Positions 2 through 19,959 of a stretch of 20,000 nucleotides of DNA are shown in pieces; the first letter of the stretch is position 1; the number at the start of each line of letters is the position of its first letter. A program made the position numbers and the translations under genes. This DNA comes from an uncultured virus (IMG/VR IMGVR_UViG_3300029305_007917) (taxonomy: Duplodnaviria > Heunggongvirae > Uroviricota > Caudoviricetes): IMG/VR virus record IMGVR_UViG_3300029305_007917; one strand, 5' to 3'. The notes under the pieces were generated by a model. It saw nothing but the letters and a program-made list of their open reading frames with translations. It was not told where the DNA came from and did not search any database.

Positions 2-490
2 GACCGGTACTTCATCAAAGATAACCACGAGCCTATAATCGACCGTGAGACCTTTGAGAAAGTACAACAGGAAATACAAGCACGAAGTAAGAAAGCTCCT
101 AAAACTCAATCAGCTCCCTGCATTTTTACAAGTTTACTCACTTGTGGTATTTGTGGAAAGAACTATCGCAAGAAAATAAATAGTAAAAAACTTGTATGGA
201 TGTGTCCAACATATAATCACATAGGTAAATCAGCTTGTGATTCTCAAATGATACGAGATGACATTCTGAAAGAAACTTCTGCCAAAGCACTCGGTATGCC
301 GGAATTCGATGAAGAAGTTTTCAAAAAGAAAGTCAAAGGTATTCAGGTTTTGAGAAATAACAGGCTGATTTATTTTTTCACCGATGGCACATCAAAAGAG
401 ATGATATGGAAACAAAAATCTCGTGCCGATGCTTGGACTCCTGAAATGAAAGAAAAACAATCAAAACTTATTTTAGAAAGGAATTTATAA
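2..490 (+). CDS. Large serine recombinase, C-terminal part (5' end outside window)
   Basis: Frame open from position 2: DRYFIKDNHEPIIDRETFEKVQ (end of recombinase domain, cf. YFIEDSHPAIIRKEVFELVQ in 989..2554), then Zn ribbon FTSLLTCGICG...WMC...C. In frame with track ORF 200..490. Confidence 0.85.
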   Translation, partial: DRYFIKDNHEPIIDRETFEKVQQEIQARSKKAPKTQSAPCIFTSLLTCGICGKNYRKKINSKKLVWMCPTYNHIGKSACDSQMIRDDILKETSAKALGMPEFDEEVFKKKVKGIQVLRNNRLIYFFTDGTSKEMIWKQKSRADAWTPEMKEKQSKLILERNL

Positions 491-493
491 TTT

Positions 494-967
494 ATGAATC
501 AAACTATTAACAACACAACTAATGAAAACAAAATCACAAAGGTAGCGGCATATTTCTGCTATTATGCTGACCCTACAAACCCATCAAAACAGTATGATGA
601 GCAGTACGAATACTACAAGGAAAAAATCACAAGTAACCCTGACTACGAATTTACGGGCATATATGCTGATGAAACTTCAACTAATACCCGAGAGAACTTT
701 GACGCAATGGTTAAGGATGCACTCGATGGAAAGATTGACCTTATTATAATGAAATCAGTTTCTCGTCTCGGTAAGTGTACAGTTGAAAACCTCAATACGA
801 TTAGAATTCTTCGAGATAAGGGCGTTGACATTTATTTTGAAAATCAGAACTTCAGTACATTAGGTCCAAATAGTGAGCTAATACTTTCGATTTATGGTTC
901 TTTTGCGGCAGAAGAAAGAGAAAAAGCTGAAGAAGAGGAATTTCGCAGAACTCACTCTACAAACTAA
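494..967 (+). CDS. Resolvase catalytic-domain-only protein with degenerate active site
   Basis: Aligns by eye with the N-terminus of 989..2554 (EYYK..IT.NPDYEF.GIY.DE, DAL.GKID.I..K..SRLG, KGVDIYFE), but YARVS is replaced by YFCYY and it ends at helix E. RBS AAAGGA upstream. Confidence 0.8.
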   Translation: MNQTINNTTNENKITKVAAYFCYYADPTNPSKQYDEQYEYYKEKITSNPDYEFTGIYADETSTNTRENFDAMVKDALDGKIDLIIMKSVSRLGKCTVENLNTIRILRDKGVDIYFENQNFSTLGPNSELILSIYGSFAAEEREKAEEEEFRRTHSTN

Positions 968-988
968 AGAAAAGGACGGAATGATGTT

Positions 989-2554
989 ATGGCAAAAGTA
1001 ACCATTATCCCTGCATTTGCAAAGGAAGAAAACGCAGTAGCAAAAAAGAAATTAAAAGTTGCGGCATACGCTCGTGTTTCAACTGACACAGAAGAGCAGC
1101 TGAATAGCTACACTGCACAGTGCGAATATTATAAAGATTTAATTACAAACAATCCTGATTATGAATTTGTTGGGATTTACACTGACGAAGGTATTACCGG
1201 TACTTGTCTTAAGAAGCGAGATGGATTCAATCGTATGGTCGAGGATGCCTTGAATGGTAAAATTGATAAAATCTACATAAAGACAATTTCACGATTAGGA
1301 AGAAACACTGTTGATAACTTAAGTGCAATAAGAGCTCTCCGAGCAAAAGGCGTCGATATATATTTTGAAATTCAAGGTATAAATACCTTGACAATGTCAA
1401 GTGAGTTGCTTGTTACAATCTTCTCTTCTCTTGCACAAGATGAAAGTCGTTCCATAAGTGACAATGTTGCGTGGGGTAAACGAAGAAAATTTGAACGTGG
1501 TGAGTTCTCACTTCCTTACAGCAAGTTCCTCGGATACAAGAAAGGCCCCGATGGTAAGCCTGAAATCGTTGAGAAAGAAGCTGAAATCATAAGACGAATT
1601 TATAAGCTCTTTTTACAGGGTTACACACCGAGTAACATCGCACACTTGCTTACCGATGAAAAAATACCAACCCCCGGTGGTAAAGAAAAATGGTCAACAT
1701 CAACCGTAACATCCATTCTGCAGAATGAAAAATACTGTGGTTGTGCTTTGCTTCAAAAATGTTATGTTCCGGACTTCCTTACACATAAAAGTGTTCCTAA
1801 CGATGGTACATTAAAACAGTATTTCATTGAAGACAGTCACCCTGCAATTATTCGCAAAGAAGTATTTGAATTGGTACAAGGTGAATTTGAAAAACGCAAA
1901 GACCAAAAGCGTATGGTTCGTAGCAATGTATTCAGTGGCAAGATATTCTGTGCTGATTGTGGTGGCTTGTATGGTGCAAAGTTATGGCATTCTACTGACA
2001 AATACAAAAAGACAATATTCCAATGCAACAACAAATTCAAGAACAAGCAGAAATGCACCACAGGTAATATTTCAGAAGAAACTATAAAAATTCTTTTCTT
2101 AAAAGCCGTAACAAACATCCTTGCAAATGACGATTATATGGATGTAAAGGAAATGATACTTGAGCAGTTTGCAGATGACCCTAAATTGGAAGATACCCTT
2201 TTAACCTTGCAGGCACAGGCAGCGAACCTTACACAGCAAGTTGAAATGCTTATCAACAGTTCTGCAAAGACCGGTAATGCACAAGTATTCCAAAGACAGT
2301 ATGAATTATTGAAAACTGACCACGAAAAGGTTGTTTTGAAAATTGAAACAACTGAAAATGCAATAACGGAAAAACGCAGAAAACATGTTACAATTTCCGA
2401 GTTTTTTAATACACTTGAAGAAATCCATAACACTGAACTTTCATTCAGTGAAGACCTATGGACAAGCCTTGTTGAAAAGGCTGTGGTTGGTAAGAACACA
2501 ATAACATTCATTTTCAAAGACGGAAGTGAAGAAACACTCCCAATCAAAATTTAA
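989..2554 (+). CDS. Large serine recombinase (resolvase + recombinase + Zn ribbon + coiled coil)
   Basis: AAYARVSTD catalytic motif, SRLGRN, FLGY, ILQNEKYCG, HPAII, Zn ribbon CADCG...C...C, coiled coil, ITFIFKDG tail; RBS AAAGGA. Confidence 0.95.
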   Translation: MAKVTIIPAFAKEENAVAKKKLKVAAYARVSTDTEEQLNSYTAQCEYYKDLITNNPDYEFVGIYTDEGITGTCLKKRDGFNRMVEDALNGKIDKIYIKTISRLGRNTVDNLSAIRALRAKGVDIYFEIQGINTLTMSSELLVTIFSSLAQDESRSISDNVAWGKRRKFERGEFSLPYSKFLGYKKGPDGKPEIVEKEAEIIRRIYKLFLQGYTPSNIAHLLTDEKIPTPGGKEKWSTSTVTSILQNEKYCGCALLQKCYVPDFLTHKSVPNDGTLKQYFIEDSHPAIIRKEVFELVQGEFEKRKDQKRMVRSNVFSGKIFCADCGGLYGAKLWHSTDKYKKTIFQCNNKFKNKQKCTTGNISEETIKILFLKAVTNILANDDYMDVKEMILEQFADDPKLEDTLLTLQAQAANLTQQVEMLINSSAKTGNAQVFQRQYELLKTDHEKVVLKIETTENAITEKRRKHVTISEFFNTLEEIHNTELSFSEDLWTSLVEKAVVGKNTITFIFKDGSEETLPIKI

Positions 2555-2655: not shown

Positions 2656-3561
2656 TTAATCGTTTTCACCGTTATCATCGATACAACTATCTTCATCAAA
2701 ATCATCAAGGCTGAACTGCTCTTCAGCTAAACGCAGCTCTTCCTCGTATTCTTCAGGGAAGCCTGTACGCTTTTTTCGTCTGTTAGAATATAGGGTTGAC
2801 CACTTAAGTGCATTCTTCATTTTTTTGTTATAAACAGTAAGTAATGCCTCTGCGTATCCCATTGAACCTGACTGCCTTTCACGGGCGTTCCTAATAATCT
2901 CCTTGAGTGAAACTACACTTAACTTTTCTTTGAACAGCTCATCATTCAAACTGTCACCATAAGCATTTACAAGTGTTGCTATGCCTTTGAGCATATTTGC
3001 AGAAAAGGAATTAGCATCTCCTTCCCAAGTACCAATGCACAATCGCATAGTTCTATCCAAACAATGGTATCCGTACCTATCCATAATTTCTTCCAAAGAA
3101 GCTATTGCACAAATACCACCGGGTTTTTTACCATTACTGATTTTCAATCCGTATGACTCGACAAGAGCTTTAATCATCAACTGCTTATCGTTTCCGGCTT
3201 CGATGTTTGCCATAAAAATTTCATAAGGTAAAAGTGCCTTCGTGTACTTGAGCTGATTCGCAAAAATATCTGCTTCTTCTTCGTAATCCAAATCATCGTA
3301 AACCATACACCAAACAGGAGTATCACGAGAGCCTGAAACAAGAGCTACAATTTCAATGGTGTGCTGACCATTAAAAACATAATTAACTCCGTTTCTGCGA
3401 CTTACTTTTACAGGGTTGATTTGGTATAAATCAAAATTATCTGCTGCTTTTTGCACATGTTTTACAGACAGATTTCTTTGATAATCTTGGTTTGAAACAA
3501 GGTTTTTTATAGGTATTTGTTCAAAGTGTACCTGTGGAACGAATTCTGAATAATCTATCAT
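2656..3561 (-). CDS. ParB/Srx-like N-terminal domain protein (DUF6551-like) with acidic tail
   Basis: YQR...V.VSRR...YVFNGQHT resembles the ParB-superfamily YQR/DGQH signature; ATGA overlap with upstream gene. Confidence 0.7.
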   Translation of the reverse strand: MIDYSEFVPQVHFEQIPIKNLVSNQDYQRNLSVKHVQKAADNFDLYQINPVKVSRRNGVNYVFNGQHTIEIVALVSGSRDTPVWCMVYDDLDYEEEADIFANQLKYTKALLPYEIFMANIEAGNDKQLMIKALVESYGLKISNGKKPGGICAIASLEEIMDRYGYHCLDRTMRLCIGTWEGDANSFSANMLKGIATLVNAYGDSLNDELFKEKLSVVSLKEIIRNARERQSGSMGYAEALLTVYNKKMKNALKWSTLYSNRRKKRTGFPEEYEEELRLAEEQFSLDDFDEDSCIDDNGEND

Positions 3562-4475
3562 TTTTCTTTACCTCTCAATGCATCCTGCATTCCTTCTGCT
3601 GCACTATTCAAGTCATATAACGCCATAAATGTATTGATTCGTGCATTATCACTTACTTCTGTTAAATTAACATTTTTCTTGACCCTTTCAATTGAACTTA
3701 TCCACGAGGGTATGGTTAAACACAAACTCGATAATTCTGCATCCGGGTCATATTCGGGCATATTTTTTATTGCAATTGTCGGTTTTTCGGATTGCATTTT
3801 TGATGCCCTTCTTGTTTTCGGAGGTGAAAATTCACCACGATGTTGCTTGAATTCCGAAAAGTCTTTCTTCTGTATAACAAGATGTTCATACAGTTTTTTC
3901 AATTCTCTGTCTGTTAAACAAACCAATTCAGCAATGTTTTCTTGCGATATGAAAACCTTTCCTTCTAACAATGCATCTGCAAGTTCCGGTAGGCTTTCAC
4001 GAACGTGGTCAATGCCTATGGAATATAGGAAATACTTGTTCAATGTATTCCGTGAAAATTCATACTCAAGTGCCATATCAGTCATACTCTTTCCGTCACG
4101 GTCTTTTTCATCTTTCGTGGCTCTTGGTGGAATTTTACCTTTAGGAGCTTCATCCTTTTCATACGAATATCGCTTACCGATGCAATACCATCGTGTTTCT
4201 TTTGGTAGGTCTTCACGCATAGCTTGTTTTTCACAAATCCACGCCTTAACCTTTTCTTTGCAGAAATACTTCAGCTTGATGTAGCTTATGGGCAGGTCAT
4301 AATCTTTTGCAATCATATACTCATCGTAGCCGTCCACAATGTGGTTCTTCCATATTGTGACTTCCGCATAACCTTTATTCAAAACAAGGTCTTCAAGTTG
4401 ATTTCTTGCTTTAGTTTTTCTTGGAAACATCAACCATAAAAATTCATTAGTTATTTTAACTTCAAAATCATTCAT
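3558..4475 (-). CDS. Divergent ParB-like protein with probable HTH
   Basis: IWKNHIVDGYDEY...AWICEKQAMREDL resembles ParB-N (IVDGHNRY...NQLGRRNL); MALEYEFSRNTL is HTH-like; RBS GGAGTG. Confidence 0.6.
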   Translation of the reverse strand: MNDFEVKITNEFLWLMFPRKTKARNQLEDLVLNKGYAEVTIWKNHIVDGYDEYMIAKDYDLPISYIKLKYFCKEKVKAWICEKQAMREDLPKETRWYCIGKRYSYEKDEAPKGKIPPRATKDEKDRDGKSMTDMALEYEFSRNTLNKYFLYSIGIDHVRESLPELADALLEGKVFISQENIAELVCLTDRELKKLYEHLVIQKKDFSEFKQHRGEFSPPKTRRASKMQSEKPTIAIKNMPEYDPDAELSSLCLTIPSWISSIERVKKNVNLTEVSDNARINTFMALYDLNSAAEGMQDALRGKEK

Positions 4476-4486
4476 TTTTCACACTC

Positions 4487-4831
4487 CTATACCACAGACT
4501 TTAGGTCAAACATAGCAACATTCTCTGATTCTACAATTTCACCTATCAGCTTGTAGTTCTTATTCTTATCCCAACCGGGACACACCTTTGCCAATGTTTC
4601 TATAAGGTTTTTACTGTAAAGTTCATAGGAAGAGTGTGCAGGTCTGCTCCAATCAATCTTATGCGCGAGTTTTGCTTTTTTACCTACAGGACGAATTGCA
4701 ATAAACAAATCATCCGGGTTCACAAGAAGCTGAATATAATCAGGCTCACCCAATAAATGAAGGGTTTTCTTGTACACCCTGATGCGACTCTTCTTTTGGT
4801 CTATCGAAATTAGTGCTGTTTTGTTTTTCAT
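4487..4831 (-). CDS. Hypothetical protein, minimal stand-alone copy of the operon's repeated domain
   Basis: LGEPDYIQLLVNP...IAIRP...W...YKLIGE...FDL is shared with 4746..5549 and the C-terminus of 5437..7410; RBS GAGG. Confidence 0.8.
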   Translation of the reverse strand: MKNKTALISIDQKKSRIRVYKKTLHLLGEPDYIQLLVNPDDLFIAIRPVGKKAKLAHKIDWSRPAHSSYELYSKNLIETLAKVCPGWDKNKNYKLIGEIVESENVAMFDLKSVV

Positions 4832-5549
4832 CGGTTATTGCCTCACTTTCATTATTTGCATTTTGTGGTTCATCTTTAATACCGAAAACTGCATAGCCAT
4901 CAAAAATATCAATTTGTAATTGTTTTTTATGCTCCTCAACCGGTAAGCCGAATTGATTCTGCCATTCAGCCGGAAATACGGGTGTTCTTGTAGCCCTTGG
5001 TTTTCCGTCCTTGACAATAATCCTCTGAAAGATTTCCGGGGAATTCAAATCAAACACAAAGAGTCTTTCACCATTTGACTCAATCAGTTTGCCAAGCAAT
5101 TTATATCGGTACTGTGGATTCCATTCCATCAATGACACAACCTTGGCAAAGAACATACGACAAGTGATTTGCTTTGGTTTCTTTTTACCCGTATTTCTGT
5201 TAATGCTACACCACAAAAACGAGTCTTTTTCATCTTCCTTACACGGACGCACAGCAAGTTTCTTCTCTATTGGGTTTACCAATATTTGAACATAATCTGC
5301 TTCTGGCACTTTCCTTATACATGCAGTATTCAGCGAAACCCTACAGTTATTAAAGGTGATGGATGGCTCAAACATATGAGCAAAAAACTCACCCCTTACA
5401 ACTTGATATCCGTCATAACTGAAAGCATCGTCACTTTCAATATCCGTAGGAGTTGCTTGGTTCTGAATACTCGTTACTGTCACTTCCGTAGGTGACTGTT
5501 TCAATTCCGGATGATGGGTATCCATCAGTTGGTTCTTCTCTTCGTACAT
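4746..5549 (-). CDS. Recombinase-associated hypothetical protein, paralogous to the C-terminal domain of the upstream recombinase
   Basis: 267-aa ORF with RBS GAGGT; motifs FSYDGYQVVRGEFF, YVQILVNP..KKLAVRP, FDL, FPAEW...FG. Confidence 0.85.
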   Translation of the reverse strand: MYEEKNQLMDTHHPELKQSPTEVTVTSIQNQATPTDIESDDAFSYDGYQVVRGEFFAHMFEPSITFNNCRVSLNTACIRKVPEADYVQILVNPIEKKLAVRPCKEDEKDSFLWCSINRNTGKKKPKQITCRMFFAKVVSLMEWNPQYRYKLLGKLIESNGERLFVFDLNSPEIFQRIIVKDGKPRATRTPVFPAEWQNQFGLPVEEHKKQLQIDIFDGYAVFGIKDEPQNANNESEAITDEKQNSTNFDRPKEESHQGVQENPSFIG

Positions 5550-7410
5550 AGTTCTGTTTTACCTCTTTTCTCATTTCTGCGATGATTTGGTCTATACTTT
5601 CTTTAATAACTGTGCCACTTGTTATATTGAGTTCAGCGTCAGTATATGGTTTGCCTGTCATATCAATATCCCAAGTTCCGTGTTTGGAATAATATTCCAT
5701 CTCTATTTGTTGAGCTCTTCTGTAATAGTCAGTACCAAAATTATCTGCCCACTCCACCGGATAAGCACATACCGATTTTTGAGTCGATACTATAGGCACT
5801 GCTTTTTCTTCATCAGTGTCTGTAGCGTTGTTTGGTATAAAGACTTCCGTTTCTGTCATATCGAACAGCAATACTGACTCTGTGCCATTCTGCTTTCTTA
5901 CACCGATTACTCGAATTTTGGAATCAGTACGCCAACCGAACATAGCAAAAAATGTCTGCAAAAATGCTGACCCTGAAATCTTCCTTGCTACAGTGCCTTC
6001 CGGTGCAACTCTTAACCACTTAATAGCATTACGATTACCTTTCTGTGATGGTCGCACGGCTAATGTTTTCTTGATAGGATGAATGAGCAATTCAACATAT
6101 TCACAAGTGCCAAGTTTCCTTATGCATTCCATACCGAATACAACCTCTCTCATAGTGAAACTTGCATTTACTTTGAGTGGCGTATTGAAAAACTGCGACC
6201 TTGCAATTTCAAAGCCGCGAAGGTCAAAATCACCACTTTTTGCTTCAACTTGGTTATCTTCATTAGGTAGGTCAATAACCCCGTCATAAACGCTCTCACA
6301 AGCCTTTATGTACTCATCAATAGTGAACCCTGCCCATCGCGGATTAACCGATATAAAGCCTTTTAACGCGCCATCCGGTATGACATGAAGTTCAGGCAAG
6401 AAACCCTTGCTACCACCATATTTTGCATTAGCGATTATCTTCTGAACTGCAATAAAGTCATCCCTTGAAATTATAGGCTCGTGGTGGTCACGTTTTCTGT
6501 ACTGATTTCGGTCGTGATTGTTCTTCTTTGACTTGTGATTCAAGTAATTAGGTGTCCACGTTTTTCGAGCCAATACATCACCACAGTGTCTTTCATTTTG
6601 CAGAATTTGAAGAATTGATGTGGGATTCCATTGTGTATTGCCCTTCTTGGTTTTTCTTCCCAATTCAGTTAGTGTTTCAGCAATTTCTCGGCAGGTGTAA
6701 CCATACAAATACATAAAGAAAATTAACCTAACTGTCTTTGCCTCATCTTCGTTGATTACAAGGTTTCCGTCCTCATCGTGGTCATATCCCAATAAAACCG
6801 GGGTAAGGAAGATACCTCTTCTGAAACGCATTTCAACCGATGCATTCATAATTTCACTTTTGTTGTGACTTTCTTCTTGAGCAAGAGTTGAGATGAATGA
6901 CAGGCTCATTTCACTGTTTGGATTGAGAGTGAATATATTCTCCGTTTCAAAGAAAACACCAATGGGTGGATTCATTGCTGCAAGTTCTCTCACATACCCA
7001 ATACAGTCGATAACATTACGGGCAAAACGAGATACGCTTTTTGTAACAATTAAGTCGATTTTGTGTTCTTTACAATCATTAATCATTTCAACAAATGCAT
7101 CTCGGTGTTGCAATGATGTACCGGAAATACCTTCATCGGCATAAATCTTATACAGATTCCAACCGGGATGTCTGTCAACTACATCCAAGTAGTGGTTCTT
7201 CTGTAATTCATACGATGAGGTTTGCCTTGGGTCATCCGTTGAAACACGTGCATAAACACCGACTCGCTTTTCGTTATTTTCATCATAAAAATCTTCCTGT
7301 GGATTGGCAGGAATGAAATCAAGCTCGTCAGGGTCAATGCCACGATAACGCTCACGAATTCGTTGCTTTTTCAACTCTGCTGCTGAAAGTTTTTGTTCGT
7401 TTTCTATCAC
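5437..7410 (-). CDS. Large serine recombinase with an uncharacterised C-terminal domain in place of the Zn ribbon
   Basis: VYARVSTD, DEGISG, KSVSRFARN, LGY, ILQNERHCG, HEPII; no CxxC Zn ribbon afterwards; GTG start with AGGAGGT RBS. Confidence 0.93.
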   Translation of the reverse strand: MIENEQKLSAAELKKQRIRERYRGIDPDELDFIPANPQEDFYDENNEKRVGVYARVSTDDPRQTSSYELQKNHYLDVVDRHPGWNLYKIYADEGISGTSLQHRDAFVEMINDCKEHKIDLIVTKSVSRFARNVIDCIGYVRELAAMNPPIGVFFETENIFTLNPNSEMSLSFISTLAQEESHNKSEIMNASVEMRFRRGIFLTPVLLGYDHDEDGNLVINEDEAKTVRLIFFMYLYGYTCREIAETLTELGRKTKKGNTQWNPTSILQILQNERHCGDVLARKTWTPNYLNHKSKKNNHDRNQYRKRDHHEPIISRDDFIAVQKIIANAKYGGSKGFLPELHVIPDGALKGFISVNPRWAGFTIDEYIKACESVYDGVIDLPNEDNQVEAKSGDFDLRGFEIARSQFFNTPLKVNASFTMREVVFGMECIRKLGTCEYVELLIHPIKKTLAVRPSQKGNRNAIKWLRVAPEGTVARKISGSAFLQTFFAMFGWRTDSKIRVIGVRKQNGTESVLLFDMTETEVFIPNNATDTDEEKAVPIVSTQKSVCAYPVEWADNFGTDYYRRAQQIEMEYYSKHGTWDIDMTGKPYTDAELNITSGTVIKESIDQIIAEMRKEVKQNYVRREEPTDGYPSSGIETVTYGSDSNEYSEPSNSYGY

Positions 7411-7524
7411 TTTTTTACCTCCTTTTCTTTCGTGATAGAATAAGTTTACTACCTTGAAAAATGCGATAAAAGGGACTGAAAGTCCAGAAATTTCCTGTGA
7501 GTGCCAATTATGAAAATTTATTAC

Positions 7525-7578: not shown

Positions 7579-7980
7579 GTGAAAACAGTGAAAATAGAGT
7601 ATGCTGTTATAGGAAAACGCATCAAAAGATGCCGTAAGAAATTAGGGTACTCACAGGAGTCATTTGCAGAAATTCTTGAAATTTCAGCATCGCATTTGCA
7701 TAAGATTGAAACGGGAATAAGATGCCCGAGTTTGGAAGTTCTCTATGCTATAGCACTTAAACTGAATGTGTCAGTTGACTATCTGCTGATGGGTTCAGAA
7801 CAACAGAACCATAGTATCGTTGACTTCAACATTTCAAGTCTCTTGGGAGATTGCCGACCTTACGAACAAAAGGTTATTCTGACAATTGCAAATCAACTGA
7901 AAATTGCGTTGATTGAAAATCGTCCGGATATCGAAGTACACCTAAAACAACATACAATCAATCGATTTCACCCATATTAA
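7579..7980 (+). CDS. XRE-family HTH transcriptional regulator (start may be GTG at 7588)
   Basis: IGKRIKRCRKKLGYSQESFAEILEISASHLHKIETG.RCPSL...LNVSVDYLL, a classic HTH_3 pattern. Confidence 0.92.
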   Translation: MKTVKIEYAVIGKRIKRCRKKLGYSQESFAEILEISASHLHKIETGIRCPSLEVLYAIALKLNVSVDYLLMGSEQQNHSIVDFNISSLLGDCRPYEQKVILTIANQLKIALIENRPDIEVHLKQHTINRFHPY

Positions 7981-10133: not shown

Positions 10134-10207
10134 TTGCAACCCACTATACTAAATTGCAACCTGCTCTCTGCATTTGCAACCTACCCCTTGAATTTGCAAC
10201 CTACCCC
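10134..10207 (+). repeat. Four TTGCAACC boxes at exact 20-bp periodicity
   Basis: Copies start at 10134, 10154, 10174 and 10194 with 12-bp variable linkers. Confidence 0.9.
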
Positions 10208-10336: not shown

Positions 10337-10361
10337 CATTTTTTGTGTCACCGCAATATTT

Positions 10362-10445
10362 GTAATCGTTTACGGAGTATGGGTAATCGTTTACGGAGTA
10401 TAGGTAATCGTTTACGGAGTACGGGTAATCGTTTACGGAGTATAA
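10362..10445 (+). repeat. Tandem 4 x 21-bp iteron-like repeat
   Basis: Invariant 18-mer GTAATCGTTTACGGAGTA at 10362, 10383, 10404 and 10425, each followed by 3 variable bases. Confidence 0.95.
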
Positions 10446-10464
10446 AACTATCGATACTTTGATA

Positions 10465-11394: not shown

Positions 11395-12624
11395 TTATTC
11401 TGTTTTTCTGTATTCCTTTAATGATTCCACAATCAAGTTGGAAAGCTCCTCGATTTCGCTACTGTTGTGCTTTGAATAGCTGTCAATAAGGAAACGAGTA
11501 TCAACTAATATTCCCAACACATATTTATGGTTTGCAGTTTCAGAATTATAGGTTTCCCAATCAACAGTTCCTACACTCACAAACTTATAAACATCATCTT
11601 TCTTAAGCTCTTTATCGAAAGGCATTATAAAAGCATTATACACTGTGTTCTTTGCATGACCGATGTTTTCACAAGCATAGTCACCATAAGTTATCTGCTT
11701 TTCAACTGATGAAGATGCAGGCAAATGCTGTGGGTTTCCGGTTATACCATACTTATAGTATTTTGCATCAAGAATATAGAGCTTATTCTCATACATCATT
11801 ATCGTGTCAGGCTCCAATGCACTACTCTCAACCTTGCCACCATTTATAATATGCCATTTTGCATGAGGGAAGTATTGCTCTTTGTTGTTTTCACCGAAAA
11901 CATAATCAATCATTTTTTCCCATACATATTCAAAGCGTTCAACACCAAAAGCAGCAACATCAGTATCATCAATACTTTCACTTTTATTGCTGATAATGTT
12001 AATCATACTTTGAAACAGCAATCGTTTGTTGGTGTTAAAAGTGCTATTAAGAGCATCTTGTAACACGGTCAAGAATTTCCTTTTATTAAACTTTATATCA
12101 GGTTTCTTGGGGAGAGTGTTACTTGATAAATATAACCACCCTAATTTTTCAAAGCTTTCTCTTACACAGTATTCGTGAATTTTGGTTAGAAGGTTGTTGG
12201 TGTTGGTCTTATCTACCTTGACAATAAAATCTAAATAGACAAGGTTACCATTGTTATAAACAGGTTTTTTGTTTTGGATTGTTCTCTTCCAATTCAGCTT
12301 TCCTTTTTTACCATCTTTGTATTGAGTTTCACGTTCAATGTAATATCCGTGAGCCAAAAAATCTTTGATTATGTATTGATATGAAAGAATCGGAAAGGAG
12401 AGGCTCGATTCACCGTCAATGGTGTTATTGAGTAAGCCTTCTTTTCTGCCACTGAATTTTTGTATCGTTGCAAAAAGGCGTATAATATCCTTGCGAGTTT
12501 GTTCCTCATCATCAACCAAATGAAAACCTCTTGGAAAGGTAATTCTCGGCTGACCATCAACGAATTTTAAGCCCACAAAGTCATCGTATTCACTTTTGCT
12601 TATCTCACAAAAATCACGAAGCAT
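11395..12624 (-). CDS. LlaJI-family (McrC-like) restriction endonuclease subunit
   Basis: FVG...FPRG, GKLNWKRTI, FEYVWEKMID, LEPDTIM...ILDAKYY (PD-(D/E)xK), KQITYG; follows an McrB-like gene. Confidence 0.88.
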   Translation of the reverse strand: MLRDFCEISKSEYDDFVGLKFVDGQPRITFPRGFHLVDDEEQTRKDIIRLFATIQKFSGRKEGLLNNTIDGESSLSFPILSYQYIIKDFLAHGYYIERETQYKDGKKGKLNWKRTIQNKKPVYNNGNLVYLDFIVKVDKTNTNNLLTKIHEYCVRESFEKLGWLYLSSNTLPKKPDIKFNKRKFLTVLQDALNSTFNTNKRLLFQSMINIISNKSESIDDTDVAAFGVERFEYVWEKMIDYVFGENNKEQYFPHAKWHIINGGKVESSALEPDTIMMYENKLYILDAKYYKYGITGNPQHLPASSSVEKQITYGDYACENIGHAKNTVYNAFIMPFDKELKKDDVYKFVSVGTVDWETYNSETANHKYVLGILVDTRFLIDSYSKHNSSEIEELSNLIVESLKEYRKTE

Positions 12625-12632
12625 AGCACATT

Positions 12633-14633
12633 TTATCCTTTTAATTGTTCATACGAATCAACAATTGCACTGACTACTGAATCTATGTCAGTTTCCACTG
12701 TTGCTTCAATTTTAAAGTAATGGTCATAATGTCCATTGTAAGGGATTTCAGAACCTAAATTTTGCAATTCAATATTAGTTGGTTTTTCTATTTCAATTAC
12801 AATCGAATTAGTTTTAAACTTAATCTCTGCATAGGATTTGTTTTTAGGATTGTCGTTTGACCCTATTCCGATGTACTGTTTACTTGAAGTAGTATATGTA
12901 TATGTGTTAGGGATTTTTTCAAATACCTTTTCACGAAGACGCATATACAAATCAACGAGAACTTGATTTTTGTTGTCTAAATATTCTGCTTCATCAACCT
13001 TTTCTATTGAATTCTCAACATATTCATCAAAAGCTAAATTTGAATTGAATACTGCAAATCCTTTTGTTTCAAAAGCTGATAACAAATCTTCCAATGTTTT
13101 ATATTCGGTATTAAATATAATATCTCTGTCGTATTTAAATGCATCATTCCACAAATACATAAGAACTTTTTCACCGAATATTTTACGACTTTTGAGGTCG
13201 TCTGATTTCACAAAATATGCGCCAAGACGATTATCTTCGCTACTCAAATTACCATCGCTGATATCAATAATTGTGTCATTGATTCTTTTAGCAAAAATAT
13301 ACCAAGTAACATTAGTTCCTGCTATACATTCGTCAGCGTGTTCACAAGCTGCAATATCGTTTTTAATACTACGCATAACCCATCTACGCTTGAAAGCAGT
13401 ATCCAAGGTAAATACATTTTGGTCAGCTGTATTCATTGTAGCTAAAATGGTGAGGTTTGTAGGGATTTTCACTTCATGCTCTTTATCACCATAAACGTAA
13501 CTTGCTATATCGAAGTTGGTTATTCCATACTCACTTTCGCCATTCTCTCTATCAAGAAGTTGAAATACCTCACCGAAAATAGCTGGGGCATTACCTCTAT
13601 TGATTTCTTCAATAACGAGGAAATGCATTTTACCTTCTTTGTCGTCTATTGCATCTTTCAAGATTTTTGTGAAAGGCCCCGCAGTGAATTTATATGTAAT
13701 ATTTTCTTCACCGTTACTCCTATCAATTATAGGTAAGATTTGTCCTATAAAATCTGAGTAGGTATAATCAGGATGAAACACTACTCTTTCCATATACTTT
13801 TTATCATTGCAGTAGTCTCTTTTGATAGTATGGCTTTTTCCACAACCCGGAACACCATACAAAATAACATTTTCACCCATTACTGTAGTCAAAGGTTCAA
13901 CAGCCACTGATTCTTCACTCTTATCTCGGTGGTCATTTAGCAAATATTCCAAATAGACAGTTAAACTTGAAAACTTTTGTTTTACATCTTCGTATTCCGC
14001 ACCAATATATGTTGTGTCGCAAAGAGAAATCAAATTATTCAGATTATATTCAGGGTTTAAGGCGAGTTCACTTTGACTTGCTTTTCTAAAATAATTAGTA
14101 CCCAACAAGAAATTAAACACTGAATTTACTGATTCGTTCTTCTCTGCAGAACCCCAAACAACGGAATTGTATGCTTCCTTCATCTGCTCTTTTGATACCA
14201 CTGTTAAGCCATTTGTTTTCATATAGGAAAGCAAATGATATAAAATGTGAATTATTTTTCCGTTAACCGGTTGGATATAATTCAAAAAGACAATATCCAT
14301 ATAATCCTTGACGGTAATATTTCCTTTGGCTACCTCAATTGCTAAATCAGTTAAATCCAAGTCACTGTTTTTCCATATTCCCATCTCGTGACCAATAGTA
14401 TACTGACTTTCAAAAGCACCGACATTTCCAGAATAAGTGCCTGAGTCAAATTTGAACAATTCGTATGCGTGTTCTAATTTTTCAGCTATAATTTCTTTGT
14501 CACTGCGGTCCGAGTTTTTATTGTTAATTTTAGTTTGATATGTTGCGTGAATTAAACTTAATAATGTCTCTGCTTTTTTTGTTCTACACAAAGTATCAAA
14601 ATAAATATGATTGTGATTTCCACAAAAAGCCAT
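12633..14633 (-). CDS. McrB-like AAA+ GTPase restriction subunit
   Basis: Walker A GVPGCGKS, FHPDYTYSDF, Walker B IEEINRGN, McrB signature TMNTAD, LDTAFKRRW. Confidence 0.92.
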   Translation of the reverse strand: MAFCGNHNHIYFDTLCRTKKAETLLSLIHATYQTKINNKNSDRSDKEIIAEKLEHAYELFKFDSGTYSGNVGAFESQYTIGHEMGIWKNSDLDLTDLAIEVAKGNITVKDYMDIVFLNYIQPVNGKIIHILYHLLSYMKTNGLTVVSKEQMKEAYNSVVWGSAEKNESVNSVFNFLLGTNYFRKASQSELALNPEYNLNNLISLCDTTYIGAEYEDVKQKFSSLTVYLEYLLNDHRDKSEESVAVEPLTTVMGENVILYGVPGCGKSHTIKRDYCNDKKYMERVVFHPDYTYSDFIGQILPIIDRSNGEENITYKFTAGPFTKILKDAIDDKEGKMHFLVIEEINRGNAPAIFGEVFQLLDRENGESEYGITNFDIASYVYGDKEHEVKIPTNLTILATMNTADQNVFTLDTAFKRRWVMRSIKNDIAACEHADECIAGTNVTWYIFAKRINDTIIDISDGNLSSEDNRLGAYFVKSDDLKSRKIFGEKVLMYLWNDAFKYDRDIIFNTEYKTLEDLLSAFETKGFAVFNSNLAFDEYVENSIEKVDEAEYLDNKNQVLVDLYMRLREKVFEKIPNTYTYTTSSKQYIGIGSNDNPKNKSYAEIKFKTNSIVIEIEKPTNIELQNLGSEIPYNGHYDHYFKIEATVETDIDSVVSAIVDSYEQLKG

Positions 14634-14637
14634 TTAT

Positions 14638-15873
14638 TCACACCTCCGAATATTTCTTTAAGAAAGCATTCACCCCATTTGCGAGTGTTTTTGCAAACAA
14701 TGGTGGTACAGCATTTCCAATCATTTTATATGCATCTGCCATAGAACCTACAAATTCAAAGTCATCGTCAAATGTCTGTAAGCGTGCTGCCTCACGAACA
14801 CTAATTGCACGAGCTTGTTTTGAATCATAGTGGATAAATCTTAAGCCATCTTTGTAAAGATGAGCTAAAATAGTTGTGCTTGGTTTGTCTTTTCTTAAGA
14901 CATGGTACTTATGCACTTTAGAATTCGCACCGGTAGCCTGATTGTAAATCTCGTTAAGTTTAGCTGAATCCTGATACAAATTTTCACCGGTCTCAATATC
15001 GTGAGCTAACATTCTAAAGATTTTTATATCTCGTTCATTTTGAAAACGAGCAAAATGCCAAGAATAGTCGCATTCCGGGATTGAATGTGATACTTTTCTT
15101 CCGTTTATCACAACTACCTCTCCGGTGGGATAACATCCGGGCATATCACCTATGGCATCAAATACGGTTTTCTTTACTTTAACTTTATATGACTCCAAGA
15201 TTCTAAAGTAAAAATCCTTTATGATTTCCTGAATGTCATATTCTTTAAAGTATTCTTTGTTAACTCCAAGAATTATAACTCGTTTTCGTTGTTGTGGAAC
15301 ACCGAAGTCACTTGTGTCAAGGACTGCCTTACTTAAATCTTCTAACACTTCATAACCGTTACTATTCATATCTCGTTTAATCAAATCTACAATAGGTGTT
15401 CCATCAGGCATTGCAGAAAGCATTCCCGGAACATTTTCAAAAACAAAAACTTTCGGTTTGTAGCGAGATACAATTTTAAGATAATACTCAAATAAATAGT
15501 TACGATAATCATTTTTCATACTATCCTTGTCGCTTACTCTGCCTGCAACAGAATAAGCCTGACACGGAGGTCCACCAACAATGACATCAATTGAACGATT
15601 GTCTATCAATGCATCTAAACCCTTGTTGCTCCCATATTTACCATCGTCCTCAAAGCCATTACACAACTCATCAAAACGTTGCATATCAAAACGAATTACA
15701 CTTTCTTCCGAGTCAACGCATCCCCACTTATCAGCAAGTCTTTTTCTCAAAGTATCTACGGGAGCTTTCTCCCATTCAACAGATGCAATTGAAGTGAAAT
15801 GGTTTGATTGCAAAAATCCGTCAAGCAATCCACCACAACCCGCAAAAAGGTCAATTGTGTTATACTTTTTCAT
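14638..15873 (-). CDS. DNA (cytosine-5)-methyltransferase 2
   Basis: DLFAGCGG, GGPPCQ, ENVPG, QQRKR, REAARLQTF, IGNAVPP; ATG at 15873 is best spaced from GGAG. Confidence 0.95.
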   Translation of the reverse strand: MKKYNTIDLFAGCGGLLDGFLQSNHFTSIASVEWEKAPVDTLRKRLADKWGCVDSEESVIRFDMQRFDELCNGFEDDGKYGSNKGLDALIDNRSIDVIVGGPPCQAYSVAGRVSDKDSMKNDYRNYLFEYYLKIVSRYKPKVFVFENVPGMLSAMPDGTPIVDLIKRDMNSNGYEVLEDLSKAVLDTSDFGVPQQRKRVIILGVNKEYFKEYDIQEIIKDFYFRILESYKVKVKKTVFDAIGDMPGCYPTGEVVVINGRKVSHSIPECDYSWHFARFQNERDIKIFRMLAHDIETGENLYQDSAKLNEIYNQATGANSKVHKYHVLRKDKPSTTILAHLYKDGLRFIHYDSKQARAISVREAARLQTFDDDFEFVGSMADAYKMIGNAVPPLFAKTLANGVNAFLKKYSEV

Positions 15874-16954
15874 TGTCATTCTCCAAATAATTTAATATCT
15901 GCATAGCAATAGCCTTGCCCAATAATGGAGGCACTGCATTACCCACTTGTTTATATTGTTCTTGTTTATTTCCAACAAATATAAAATCATCCGGGAAACT
16001 TTGTAATCTTGCATTTTCTCTCACTGTTGGGATGCGATTGTACTTGTAATGGAAATGAGTTCGATGTCCGGTATCAATAGTTAGAGAAGGCTTTTTGCTT
16101 GAGTATCTATGTAAGCTCTCATGATATTTGAAATTCTTCGCTAATTCAGGGGGTAAATCCGTATATTTTCCTCCATCTGGAACCAATTTCAAATGTGATA
16201 TTGTTTTTTCTGTATGTTTAGTTGGCGCGTGATTATATACTCTTTTAGAGTTCTTACGCATTATCTTTTGATATTCAGTCAAAGGTTCTACCGGGTAGTC
16301 TCTCACAGTAGAAACACTAAAATCTGTTTCACCTTCCAAGGACGGTAAGTCCCCAATTGCATCTTCGCAAGTTACATAGTTATCTTCTGTAAACGAGGGC
16401 ATGGGATATTCAAATTGGTCTTCTGAATTTAAGATTCCTACAAAAAAGGCTCTTTTTCTAATCTGTGGGACACCGTAATCCGGAGCATAAAGAACTTTAA
16501 CATTCATTGTATAACCAAGATTTTGAAAATCCGTAAATATTTTTTCTTTACCCATACCATTATACAGAGTAAGCATACCCGGAACGTTTTCCAATACAAC
16601 AAATCGAGGTTTCAATTTTTCTGCAGTTTTTACCATTGCCTCATACAAGGTGTTTCTTTTATCTCCTTCCTCACGTTTACCCGCAAGAGAAAAACCCTGA
16701 CAAGGGGGTCCACCCACAAGAACATCAAGAGTTAAGTTTTGTGCATTTAGCTCATCAATAATACACTGAATATTATCGTGGTTAAAAAGGTCTAATTTCA
16801 TTGGCTTCGCTGAACCGTGATTCTTGCCAAAGGTTTCTAATGCCGCATTATCGAAATCAACACCTAATACTACATTAAAACCTGCATCATAAAAACCACG
16901 GGAAAGTCCTCCGGCCCCTGAAAACAAGTCAATACAATTATACTTTCTTTCCAT
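15860..16954 (-). CDS. DNA (cytosine-5)-methyltransferase 1
   Basis: DLFSGAGG, GGPPCQGFS, ENVPG, QIRKR, RENARLQSFPD, VGNAVPP. Confidence 0.95.
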   Translation of the reverse strand: MERKYNCIDLFSGAGGLSRGFYDAGFNVVLGVDFDNAALETFGKNHGSAKPMKLDLFNHDNIQCIIDELNAQNLTLDVLVGGPPCQGFSLAGKREEGDKRNTLYEAMVKTAEKLKPRFVVLENVPGMLTLYNGMGKEKIFTDFQNLGYTMNVKVLYAPDYGVPQIRKRAFFVGILNSEDQFEYPMPSFTEDNYVTCEDAIGDLPSLEGETDFSVSTVRDYPVEPLTEYQKIMRKNSKRVYNHAPTKHTEKTISHLKLVPDGGKYTDLPPELAKNFKYHESLHRYSSKKPSLTIDTGHRTHFHYKYNRIPTVRENARLQSFPDDFIFVGNKQEQYKQVGNAVPPLLGKAIAMQILNYLENDNEKV

Positions 16955-16994
16955 GATATTACCTCGTTCAACAACTGATTTTTTCGTAAATTAT

Positions 16995-17024
16995 ATTATA
17001 TCATAAAAATGCACATTTTGTCGA
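16995..17024 (-). promoter_or_regulatory. Promoter of the RM operon
   Basis: Minus strand TCGACA-18 bp-TATAAT with TGn extended -10. Confidence 0.55.
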
Positions 17025-17049
17025 TAAAAATTGAAAATTAATCTCAATT

Positions 17050-17526
17050 TTACAAATTTATGACTTCAACACCATTTTCTTTTGCATACTTGACAGTGTA
17101 AGCCGTGCCACCTGTGTTTTTAGTAAGATAGCTGATACAAAGGCTACTGTTATCTACCAAATGACGATTACGCTTGAACATACATTCCGGGGTGTAGTTC
17201 TTTTCAACATAAACCACCTTGTTTGCCTTTTTAAGAATGTCATTGAATACTTTGACATCCTTTTCCAACCACCCCTTAAATTGGTCGTAGCAAGGCAGAA
17301 CGAGGATAAGCTTTACTTGTGGGTGTTTTTCTTGAAGTGACAATACTGTCAGTGCCGCAAGTGTGTCAAATCCCAAAGCTCCTCCACAGCCAAAGTAACA
17401 ATAACCCTGACTGATTAAATCCTCAAGTAAATCTGTCAACTGTATTTTTAAGGCTTCATAGCGGTCCTGTGGAATGACTCTGTGACCGGTAAAGCAAACT
17501 GTATGTAAGCGCTTCTCGTCAACCAT
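17050..17526 (-). CDS. SLOG-superfamily protein (DUF1273/YspA-like)
   Basis: VCFTGHR, GGALGFD, RNRHLVDNS, GGTAYTVKYA. Confidence 0.88.
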   Translation of the reverse strand: MVDEKRLHTVCFTGHRVIPQDRYEALKIQLTDLLEDLISQGYCYFGCGGALGFDTLAALTVLSLQEKHPQVKLILVLPCYDQFKGWLEKDVKVFNDILKKANKVVYVEKNYTPECMFKRNRHLVDNSSLCISYLTKNTGGTAYTVKYAKENGVEVINL

Positions 17527-17528
17527 AA

Positions 17529-17912
17529 TCAATCATCCATAAACATTAAATATTCAGCTTCACGACCTAAAAGTCGTTTTCTTATTTTATCGTCCTTTTC
17601 TTGCAGAAGAACAATCATCCTATCGATGATTTTTTGAACATCACCATCGGTATAGCGTTTATCAAAACAACCATATCCTGAAAAATGGTCTTCCCGCAAA
17701 AGCATAGTCAGTAATGCACAGCATAAATCAAAATCTGCAGTATCGACACGCATTAACTCTTCATCACAATTAATGGGTGCTGTTGTCATAAAATCATAAT
17801 AGTTATATTTTATTAAACCTTCTTTTTCTAAAAGTTCATAGTAGTAATCTGAAAAGCAACAAGGCATCTGTGGTTTGATTTTCAGCTTTTCAATCATTTC
17901 TTTGATAGCCAT
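17529..17912 (-). CDS. Small helical protein (DUF6508-like, tentative)
   Basis: LLTMLLREDHF..G.F.....DG.V..II pattern; RBS GGAAGGTG; own promoter. Confidence 0.65.
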   Translation of the reverse strand: MAIKEMIEKLKIKPQMPCCFSDYYYELLEKEGLIKYNYYDFMTTAPINCDEELMRVDTADFDLCCALLTMLLREDHFSGYGCFDKRYTDGDVQKIIDRMIVLLQEKDDKIRKRLLGREAEYLMFMDD

Positions 17913-17956
17913 AAAGTAACAGCACCTTCCTTCTGTTTCCCATAAAATACAAATAT

Positions 17957-17985
17957 ATTATAAACATCTTAATAGCATTAGTCAA
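17957..17985 (-). promoter_or_regulatory. SigA promoter for the 17529..17912 / SLOG operon
   Basis: Minus strand TTGACT-17 bp-TATAAT. Confidence 0.7.
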
Positions 17986-18110
17986 TTGCAGTATGTAGGT
18001 TCAGTCCCATTTTTCGGTCTTATAATTTCAAAAAAATTTTTTATAATACACAAACCCTAATAACATCAAGGGTTATGAGATTTTTTGAAAAGAAATCGCA
18101 AAAATAGGGG

Positions 18111-18165
18111 TTGACAAAATCAAAAACCATCGCTACAATAGTAAGCACAACAGAACAAATGTTCG
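18111..18165 (+). promoter_or_regulatory. SigA promoter with a Firmicutes LexA (SOS/Cheo) box
   Basis: TTGACA-17 bp-TACAAT (18111-18139), then AGAACAAATGTTCG (GAAC-N4-GTTC) at 18152-18165. Confidence 0.8.
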
Positions 18166-18202
18166 CTTAACAAGGGCAACATAAGAAACAAAGGAGGATG
18201 CA

Positions 18203-18476
18203 ATGGTTTTAACCTACCAAGAATTAAATGACATGGCTCAAAAAATAGTTGATGAATATCGTAGCCCCAACGACCACCCATACATCAACGTTAATATTGA
18301 AGAGCTCTTTAAAAAGTTGTACAACCTAAAATTTAAGTTTTGCGACTTGAGTGGCAACAGTTCCGTATTGGGACTTTTTTCATCTATACCTATAAGGTTC
18401 ACCATTAAAGAAAATGGTATCTCCACTCTCATTCAACTTGATGGGCAAACTGCCCTCATTGATGAAAGCCTCTTGC
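18203..18476 (+). pseudogene. 5' fragment of an ImmA/IrrE-like metallopeptidase gene
   Basis: AGGAGG RBS; VNIEEL...L.F.F.DLS...SVLG...TALIDESLL resembles the ImmA/IrrE N-terminus; no HExxH because the frame runs into antisense qatD sequence. Confidence 0.55.
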
Positions 18477-18940
18477 ATCATTTTTATGCTTCCACTATAC
18501 CAATGTATAATTGCTTTTGTCACATTGTTTTTTTTCAGTATGTCAAAAGCCTCTTTTTCAGAATTGCGTACATGAACTGAAAGAATTTTGTGTTTTGCTG
18601 CAGATTCTTTGCATATAAAATCAAAAATTTCCATCTGCTTATTTTTGGTGTCAATATACTTTTTTGAAAAATCAAGACCAACTTCACCAATGTATTTAGT
18701 TGTTGACAATTGATGTAAAAACAATCTTTTATTGAAATTCACCACTTTGATTTGCTGTGGATTAAAACCAAGAGCGAATTTAATAAATTTACTTTCAGGA
18801 TATATCTTTTTGCACGAATAATAAATCTCAGGAGTGTTTGTTACACAAAGAGTGTATTGTTCCAATTTATTGATTTCTCTATACCAATATTCATGATTAC
18901 TATAATGATCTAAATGAAAATGGGTATCAATCAGTTTCAT
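18470..18940 (-). pseudogene. qatD: TatD-family nuclease (QatD-like), 3' truncated
   Basis: IDTHFHLD, VTNTP, ALGFNP, IGEVGLDFS, ILSVHVR, IIHWYSG; lacks the C-terminal FSIN/ETD part; read-through ORF ends at 18380. Confidence 0.75.
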
Positions 18941-18944
18941 ATAA

Positions 18945-19703
18945 TCACTCCATTATTGCTTTAAGTTTTGGATCTTTTGAAAACATTTTATATAAATCAT
19001 CAATGGATTTTTTATACAAACTCAAAAATTTCAGTGATTCTTCATCATTTAAATGTCCTGTCCCGCGAATTCTATTTAAAATTTCTTGATCTGTAGATTT
19101 TTTTGCTAAAGCAACAGAACTTATCAAATCGACTAAATCCGAGCGCGTATTATTAGTTCCATTCAAATAGTGATTATATGAAATCGCATCAGGGGTTTTA
19201 TACTTATCTTGAGGCAATGTAAGGTCTAATAAAGAAGATTGACGAATCAAACAGGGATAACAATATCCACAATTACTAGGGGCCGAATCACCTTTCCAAC
19301 GACCGTTTTTGGGATGAGAACAAGAAATGGTTAAATGTATTTTGTTTAAAAAACCATCAAAATCTTTAAGATTTTGAACCATTTCTCTCTTTGTTAGAAA
19401 AGCGTAAGGATTTGAAACACAATGGCTTATACCTAATTTGGATAAAATAGAATTAAATGATTTTAAAAAATAGGGATGCGTCGTCCTTGTGCTACAACTG
19501 CCTTTTCTGCTTGCTGTAAGTGGTAAATTCAAACCAATAAATCCATTTTCAGGAATATAAACCGGTGTATTATCTCCAATTAAATCGGCAATACAAATAG
19601 CAGCACTCAAAAATAAAAATGACCTGCTTCTACTCGTGTTTTCTGTTTTCGCAAAATCCGAATATAAAGGTTTATAGGCTCTGGCTGAAAAAGAAAAAAA
19701 CAT
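18945..19703 (-). pseudogene. qatC: QueC-like Qat protein QatC, 5' truncated
   Basis: ENTSRSRSFLF, PENGFIGLNLPL...STRTTHP, NPY..LTK.EM, SCSH, CGYCYPCLIR; no SGGxDS PP-loop and an in-frame stop at 19791-19793. Confidence 0.78.
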
Positions 19704-19873
19704 AGATACATAATAGTTTTTTGCAGAAATTCTTAAACGACCACATGTTGACCCATAGTCTTTTATGTAACACTTGGATTTATTGGTATTTTATCGCTTT
19801 AAAAAGCATTTTGAGTGGACTGAATAGCACGGTTTACTGGGATTTTGGACTATTCAGAACATTAAAAAATGCG

Positions 19874-19918
19874 TTTGGGAGCAAGATGTCGGGGGTTCAA
19901 ATCCCTTCACTCCGACCA
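19874..19918 (+). mobile_element. Probable att site: 3' half of tRNA-Pro(TGG)
   Basis: TTTGGGA anticodon loop, GCAAG, T arm GGGGG-TTCAAAT-CCCTT, CACTCCG-A-CCA; no 5' anticodon strand, D arm or 5' acceptor strand upstream. Confidence 0.8.
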
Positions 19919-19959
19919 AAAACGATTGAAAACCATTGGTTTTCAGTCGTTTTTCTTTT
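19918..19959 (+). terminator. Terminator downstream of the tRNA fragment
   Basis: AAAAACGATTGAAAACC-ATT-GGTTTTCAGTCGTTTTT hairpin. Confidence 0.75.

Follow-up and report, generated by a model that had tools for sequence, protein, structure and literature searches.

The window, the 20,000-nucleotide stretch of viral DNA analysed here, is the end of a prophage; an identical contig carries terminase, portal, capsid, tail and holin genes, followed by canonical recombinase genes that converge on gene E, the outermost of five minus-strand genes that we name A to E. Gene A encodes a serine recombinase that ends in a domain we call X, B and C encode X on its own, and the features of this region are the following.

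2..2554, plus strand: canonical serine recombinase genes of the prophage in convergent orientation, a zinc ribbon in two of them and the catalytic domain alone in the third (Pfam), likely its integration module
2656..3561, minus strand: gene E, DUF6551, ParB-CTPase fold (Pfam, 114.8 bits against a cut-off of 26.8)
3558..4475, minus strand: gene D, probable ParB-like N-terminal domain and a helical/HTH region (PHROG matches in the family)
4487..4831, minus strand: gene C, 114 aa, X on its own in a short form without arm or tail, bearing a conserved basic hairpin, D-x-K-K-x-R-I-R
4746..5549, minus strand: gene B, 267 aa, stand-alone long X with arm, core and tail; start codon uncertain
5437..7410, minus strand: gene A, 657 aa, serine recombinase with catalytic domain, recombinase domain and domain X, no zinc ribbon (Pfam)
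5665..6228, minus strand: X domain of A, with arm, core and tail (local and profile alignment, model)
6187..6228, minus strand: arm of A's X, FDLRGFEIARSQFF, residues 395-408, which in the predicted complex docks on the core strand of B
6334..6366, minus strand: conserved motif past the recombinase domain of A, about residues 349-359, with invariant G, W and F
7240..7242, minus strand: catalytic serine codon, S57 of A (read off the sequence; invariant alignment column)
7474..7503, minus strand: putative operator in front of A, a dyad of two 11-bp boxes 8 bp apart (pattern scan)
7579..7980, plus strand: divergent XRE-family regulator (HTH_3)

The preliminary description had proposed that a single domain is encoded three times in a row. 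All three open reading frames, with the motifs it quoted, were found in place on the minus strand, and both shuffling and profile-profile alignment bear out the homology of the three copies. Local alignment scores exceeded the maximum of 2000 shuffles for every pair (z 34 for A-B, 16 for B-C and 10 for A-C); the A-B alignment has 25% identity over 179 aa (BLAST E 2e-22), and hhalign comparison of family profiles built from 66, 68 and 72 sequences gave probabilities of 99.9% over 189 columns for A-B and of 98.5% and 98.3%, both over 108 columns, for A-C and B-C. An N-terminal arm and a C-terminal tail are common to A and B and missing from C, and the X cores have a median net charge of +5. At E<=0.001, B (model pLDDT 78.6) reached 2139 clusters and C 1486 representatives at 50% identity; neither has a family match in Pfam, NCBIfam or PHROGs, a PDB sequence search returned 0 and 1 weak match, respectively, and an Atlas search gave unnamed clusters only for B and no named match for C. 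The A/B overlap of 113 bases (5437-5549) and the B/C overlap of 86 bases (4746-4831) are longer than in most relatives, and the overlapping tails are unconserved.

Gene A matches Resolvase over residues 52-199 (87.7 bits) and Recombinase over 221-327 (91.5 bits) in Pfam, and it keeps the catalytic residues of the Y-x-R-V-S and S-R-F-x-R-N motifs, Ser and Arg included, which are invariant in the family alignment (62/62). The extra domain had been said to take the position of the zinc ribbon and coiled coil, and this reading holds: a Pfam scan found no Zn_ribbon_recom (PF13408) in A, while finding it in the neighbouring recombinases at 989-2554 and 2-490, and the model of A has no coiled-coil hairpin, a strand-rich domain following residue 330, with only two helices of 16-17 residues near the C-terminus. 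The zinc-ribbon family is present in 0 of the 120 listed A homologues (536 found), and CxxC occurs past residue 330 in 1 of 63 A sequences, against a zinc motif in 49 of 58 neighbouring canonical recombinases. The best structural matches of the model are serine integrase-DNA complexes (E 3e-16); the CcrB family model aligns to A at E 1e-29 (103.5 bits, cut-off 900), and A misses all curated SCCmec CcrA/B/C cut-offs (103.5/900, 76.6/900 and 53.3/700 bits). Because it has neither the zinc ribbon nor the coiled coil of a serine integrase and falls short of the Ccr cut-offs, we treat A as a variant rather than a member of these families. It shares the catalytic and recombinase domains with the large serine integrases (phiC31, Bxb1, SPbeta/A118 type) and with CcrA/B/C, but differs from them in the missing zinc ribbon and embedded coiled coil, in its C-terminal X and two X paralogues, and in its placement in a separate clade.

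The same parts also occur unfused. Phi1207.3 orf2 is a 370-aa recombinase without a zinc ribbon, 39% identical to residues 14-369 of A, and it is followed by orf3, whose 138-aa product is hit by each of the three X profiles (E 9e-9, 4e-9 and 2e-12). The motif at about residues 349-359 of A, which could be a first docking arm, is also the C-terminus of such split recombinases, namely orf2 and two heliusvirus recombinases. In the parts of PMC4260502 available to us, orf2 is listed as a resolvase, orf3 is given without function, and excision is assigned to orf56/57; the family assignment of orf3 of Tn1207.1/Phi1207.3 made here is the first that we found. Like A-B-C, the orf2-orf3 pair of Phi1207.3 and Tn1207.1, present also in Phi-m46.1-type and other streptococcal prophages and in heliusviruses, joins a zinc-ribbon-less recombinase to an X protein, but it consists of two unfused genes with one X and no D or E. 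Of 21 phage records with an orf3-type X, 18 show a related recombinase match immediately before it, the other 3 not being among the matches listed, and one record has separate genes for the recombinase and long-X parts of A. A tree was built from 40 recombinase domains, comprising 13 of the 63 A sequences, 5 further X-linked enzymes and 22 canonical ones, and rooted on one of the canonical enzymes; it unites the X-linked recombinases, 18 in all and both fused and split, in a single clade (FastTree support 0.998).

The fold of X was harder to place. The AbrB/MraZ-like DNA-binding fold suggested earlier survives only as a weak likeness to MraZ, which has an AbrB-like swapped-hairpin fold. The best fold match is a transcription factor; Pfam as a whole gave no hit in any of 72 C members, and hhalign of X against AbrB/MraZ gave at most 1% with thin profiles of 4-17 sequences. 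Foldseek against the PDB returned nothing at E<=0.001, and PCNA, which filled its top rows, was discarded at an rmsd of 16-18 A; in a viral structure library, 6 uncharacterised proteins matched at E<=0.001. The modelled complex scored 0.66, against 0.18 for the best control. Of 157 solved complexes 116 attain this mark, as do 2 of 215 mismatched pairs, a calibration that holds only roughly for this prediction; the runs share at least 63% of contacts, and the partner pLDDT is at least 68. The predicted A-B interface brings chain 1 residues 14-25 against chain 3 residues 53-60 with a least expected error of 1.5 A, and it involves conserved residues of the arm. Only B was scored as a partner, and C is not among the confident contacts listed, which is evidence neither way. 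We consider it probable that A, B and C form a heteromer, and are much less sure of its biological role. The proposal that this heteromer replaces the att-recognition and directionality module stands in part. The multimer model places A's arm on B's core; no target site was found. It is very unlikely, in our view, that X is only an MraZ/AbrB-type transcription regulator fused to A, with B and C regulating the operon outside recombination. The transcription-factor fold match, the dyad at the promoter and one lone X would fit such a role; however, A is without a zinc ribbon in both fused and split forms, X keeps its place beside it, conserved arm residues sit at the A-B interface, and the operator is already accounted for by the XRE protein.

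The five genes travel together. We collected 175 loci by similarity to B, two of them identical to the window, from viral contigs (21 plus the best 80 of 254, overlapping), from genomes (the best 80 of 293) and from 3 annotated phage records. In these loci, whose selection by similarity to B favours close relatives in the counts, A lies upstream of B in 172/172 and C downstream in 173/173, with D in 165/166 and E in 153/154; the order A-B-C-D-E is kept in 140 of the 142 loci that extend far enough in both directions, and in 53 of 55 after dereplication at 90%. Values of dN/dS between 0.04 and 0.37 for all five genes in four of five pairs, the fifth being saturated except for C (0.29), point to purifying selection on each of A to E. 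D and E were near none of the distant A-B-C sets in the 5 loci examined. An A-type X profile was found in 4 of 401 genomes of a phylum-wide sample, the centre genome among them; hosts are mostly Bacillota, the few non-Bacillota titles being MAGs that may be misbinned. One X gene stands alone in a polysaccharide locus, with no recombinase found within 16 kb; this gene (L366:7517-7960) and a distant A-B-C set with a broken B (L367:7514-10471) both adjoin polysaccharide biosynthesis genes. A subclade (L013:7395-7994, L014, L016, L018, L019 and L020) has an extra gene for a degenerate resolvase domain of about 200 aa directly upstream of A on the same strand.

D is probably ParB-like: among 70 members of its family, 11 hit a ParB-like PHROG (E down to 6e-10), although the window copy matches none and Pfam ParB_N has no match in those 70. 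E matches a ParB-like PHROG at E 4e-14, and the available part of a preprint reports that DUF6551, its family, binds NTP through a ParB-CTPase fold, with CTP and ATP both named (10.1101/2025.10.10.680097). D- or E-like genes also occur apart from X (L163:843-8335, L210:4252-5184, L018:11965-12768), those in L163 adjoining three serine recombinase genes by which A is interrupted. The centre of the dyad upstream of A lies 40 bp ahead of a hexamer resembling a -10 element (7443-7448). Its two-box pattern, derived from the same sequence set in which it was counted, recurs in 33 of the 62 upstream regions scanned, one of them that of the window, while 20 shuffles gave 0-1, and the best inverted repeat upstream of A exceeds the shuffle maximum in 39 of 65 regions. 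The XRE gene, homologues of which lie upstream in 57 non-redundant loci, likely encodes the protein that binds the dyad. The arrangement resembles C-protein operators of restriction-modification systems in its two GACT-N3-AGTC-like boxes (C-box consensus from PMC2175313), promoter and adjoining XRE gene, but the spacer there is 4 bp rather than 8 bp, and the 9 PDB matches of the window's XRE protein include no C protein. The dyad is disfavoured as a recombination site, being single-copy with a variable centre; a few loci (L124, L011) show weaker second scores. The search for a recombination site was unsuccessful: nearly all loci scanned have a single dyad, and repeat searches gave nothing convincing.

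Relatives of the unit sit on several kinds of element. Many are on Ca. Heliusvirales phages, often beside comEC pieces; by tblastn, with redundant strains included, comEC pieces neighbour 17 and cpaF/tadA pieces 22 of the 175 loci, and record names place others in the rum gene. The second carrier is a 19.5-kb element, which we take to be a Tn554-like transposon, inserted at a single conserved position within cpaF/tadA; it is widespread, occurring in many Lachnospiraceae (G012:C1 about 457,500-477,000; L205:13934 to L085:13436). It encodes three tyrosine recombinases and DUF6262, and identity stops at one base about 480 bp past E in 18/18 aligned loci. The remainder of the cpaF/tadA gene lies at the other end, where 120 junction reads hold 20 forms of the adjacent 6 bp, with one circle junction (L248). 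Variable coupling sequences are tyrosine recombinase behaviour. These junctions were therefore not made by A, and A is ruled out as the integrase of this element. The transposon also carries an MmeI-type enzyme with a swapped specificity region. The third carrier is a relaxase element with its own canonical recombinase. L338 contains a canonical recombinase gene; the integrase of an Anaerocolumna prophage was not located.

Regulatory prophage excision offers one comparison, in which the complex would excise or re-integrate the element that carries it when the NTP-binding ParB-fold proteins sense a signal, and so restore the interrupted competence or pilus gene. The module's place near element ends and its comEC and cpaF/tadA neighbours are consistent with this, as is Phi1207.3, which also sits in comEC, at a 2-bp GA site (PMC4260502, in the part available). 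We nevertheless judge it unlikely, given that the cpaF element's variable 6-bp coupling sequences are not a serine recombinase product and that this element has three tyrosine recombinases, while other relatives sit in rum. Alternatively, XRE-A-B-C-D-E could itself be a small mobile element that inserts, with adjoining cargo, at the ends of larger ones. The same six genes do recur with unrelated flanks and at differing positions relative to phage modules, and only 81 of the 118 loci with enough flanking sequence are followed by a canonical recombinase; yet no shared boundary, target duplication or circle junction was seen for the cassette, a repeat search for cargo or cassette boundaries gave nothing, and contigs from 4 runs, which cannot prove that a joint is absent, included none with support at either end of the cassette when compared with the window, and we regard the idea as improbable.

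A defensive function, in which A to E recognise incoming or co-resident DNA and then cut, rearrange or trap it, strikes us as distinctly unlikely too. Flanks rich in restriction-modification and defence genes (LlaJI-type, YspA SLOG and TatD with QueC in the window; McrBC, type I RM, Kiwa and MmeI in relatives), passage on unrelated element types and the C-box-like operator speak for it; but the recombinase is the only nuclease- or effector-like domain, and mobile-element cargo holds defence genes anyway.

We favour, at somewhat less than even confidence, an accessory, resolvase-like recombinase that is steered by an X heteromer and acts in cis on the excised or circular DNA of its element, with help from D and E. 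In the modelled contact, A's arm docks on B's core strand; B's homologous arm would dock on the next subunit, and armless C would end the chain. The basic X cores, and C's hairpin above all, may bind DNA and take over the architectural role of the integrase zinc ribbon and coiled coil. Most speculatively, the complex might act like a resolvase with built-in accessory proteins and recombine sites in cis, resolving dimers or cointegrates, with ParB-fold D and E assisting and another enzyme integrating the element, and the XRE protein and dyad operator might time its expression. X homology, the kept gene order, purifying selection, zinc-ribbon loss, the single clade, the recombinase found next to orf3-type X, the charge of the X cores and the complex score all argue for this reading, as does the separate integrase of the window prophage, the cpaF transposon and the relaxase element. 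Against it stand the failure to find a recombination site, the lone X, the absence of D and E beside distant A-B-C sets, the weak MraZ likeness and the Anaerocolumna prophage, and a dimer-resolution role is not obvious for the cpaF transposon, in which no replication gene was recognised.

In resolvases with accessory proteins, such as Sin with HU and Xer with PepA/ArgR, separate architectural DNA-binding proteins steer synapsis. The proposal for A-B-C is analogous in having a catalytic subunit steered by such proteins, but A has a large-enzyme recombinase domain and no resolvase HTH, its accessory domain is fused and paralogous, and no res site was found. The available parts of PMC3783163 and PMC5499577 attribute site choice and directionality of large serine recombinases to the zinc ribbon and coiled coil; if our reading is true, a conserved, selected clade that manages without either by means of a separable heteromeric module would represent another solution, which three proteins would suffice to test in vitro. 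A bolder version, conceivable if on the unlikely side, is a new multi-subunit serine recombinase class. In it, an A-to-B-to-C arm-in-groove chain of MraZ-like domains, capped by DNA-binding C, would replace the zinc ribbon and coiled coil, NTP-driven ParB-fold clamps D and E would deliver the chain along DNA and so set partner choice and direction, and orf2-orf3 of mef(A) prophages would be the minimal two-gene form. The architecture had been called uncharacterised, and we likewise found no description in the literature searched, most subscription papers lying outside that search; of the Heliusvirales paper (PMC11283538), the available part speaks only of a common DNA invertase, and recombinases are not discussed in the GuFi preprint. 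The unit is common on gut Firmicutes elements (Ca. Heliusvirales phages), and integrase mining screens could miss or misread A-type recombinases.

Elsewhere in the window, defence-like cargo at 11395-19703 comprises a LlaJI-type restriction pair, two C5 methylases, YspA SLOG, DUF6508 and TatD beside QueC, presumably a Qat-like pair; in another strain the methylase block is replaced. Two short intergenic tandem arrays, at 10134-10204 and 10352-10456, have periods of 20 bp and 21 bp, and another strain has one extra 21-22-bp unit. At 19721-19930, high depth and tRNA-like loose ends suggest a tRNA gene and a possible element end.
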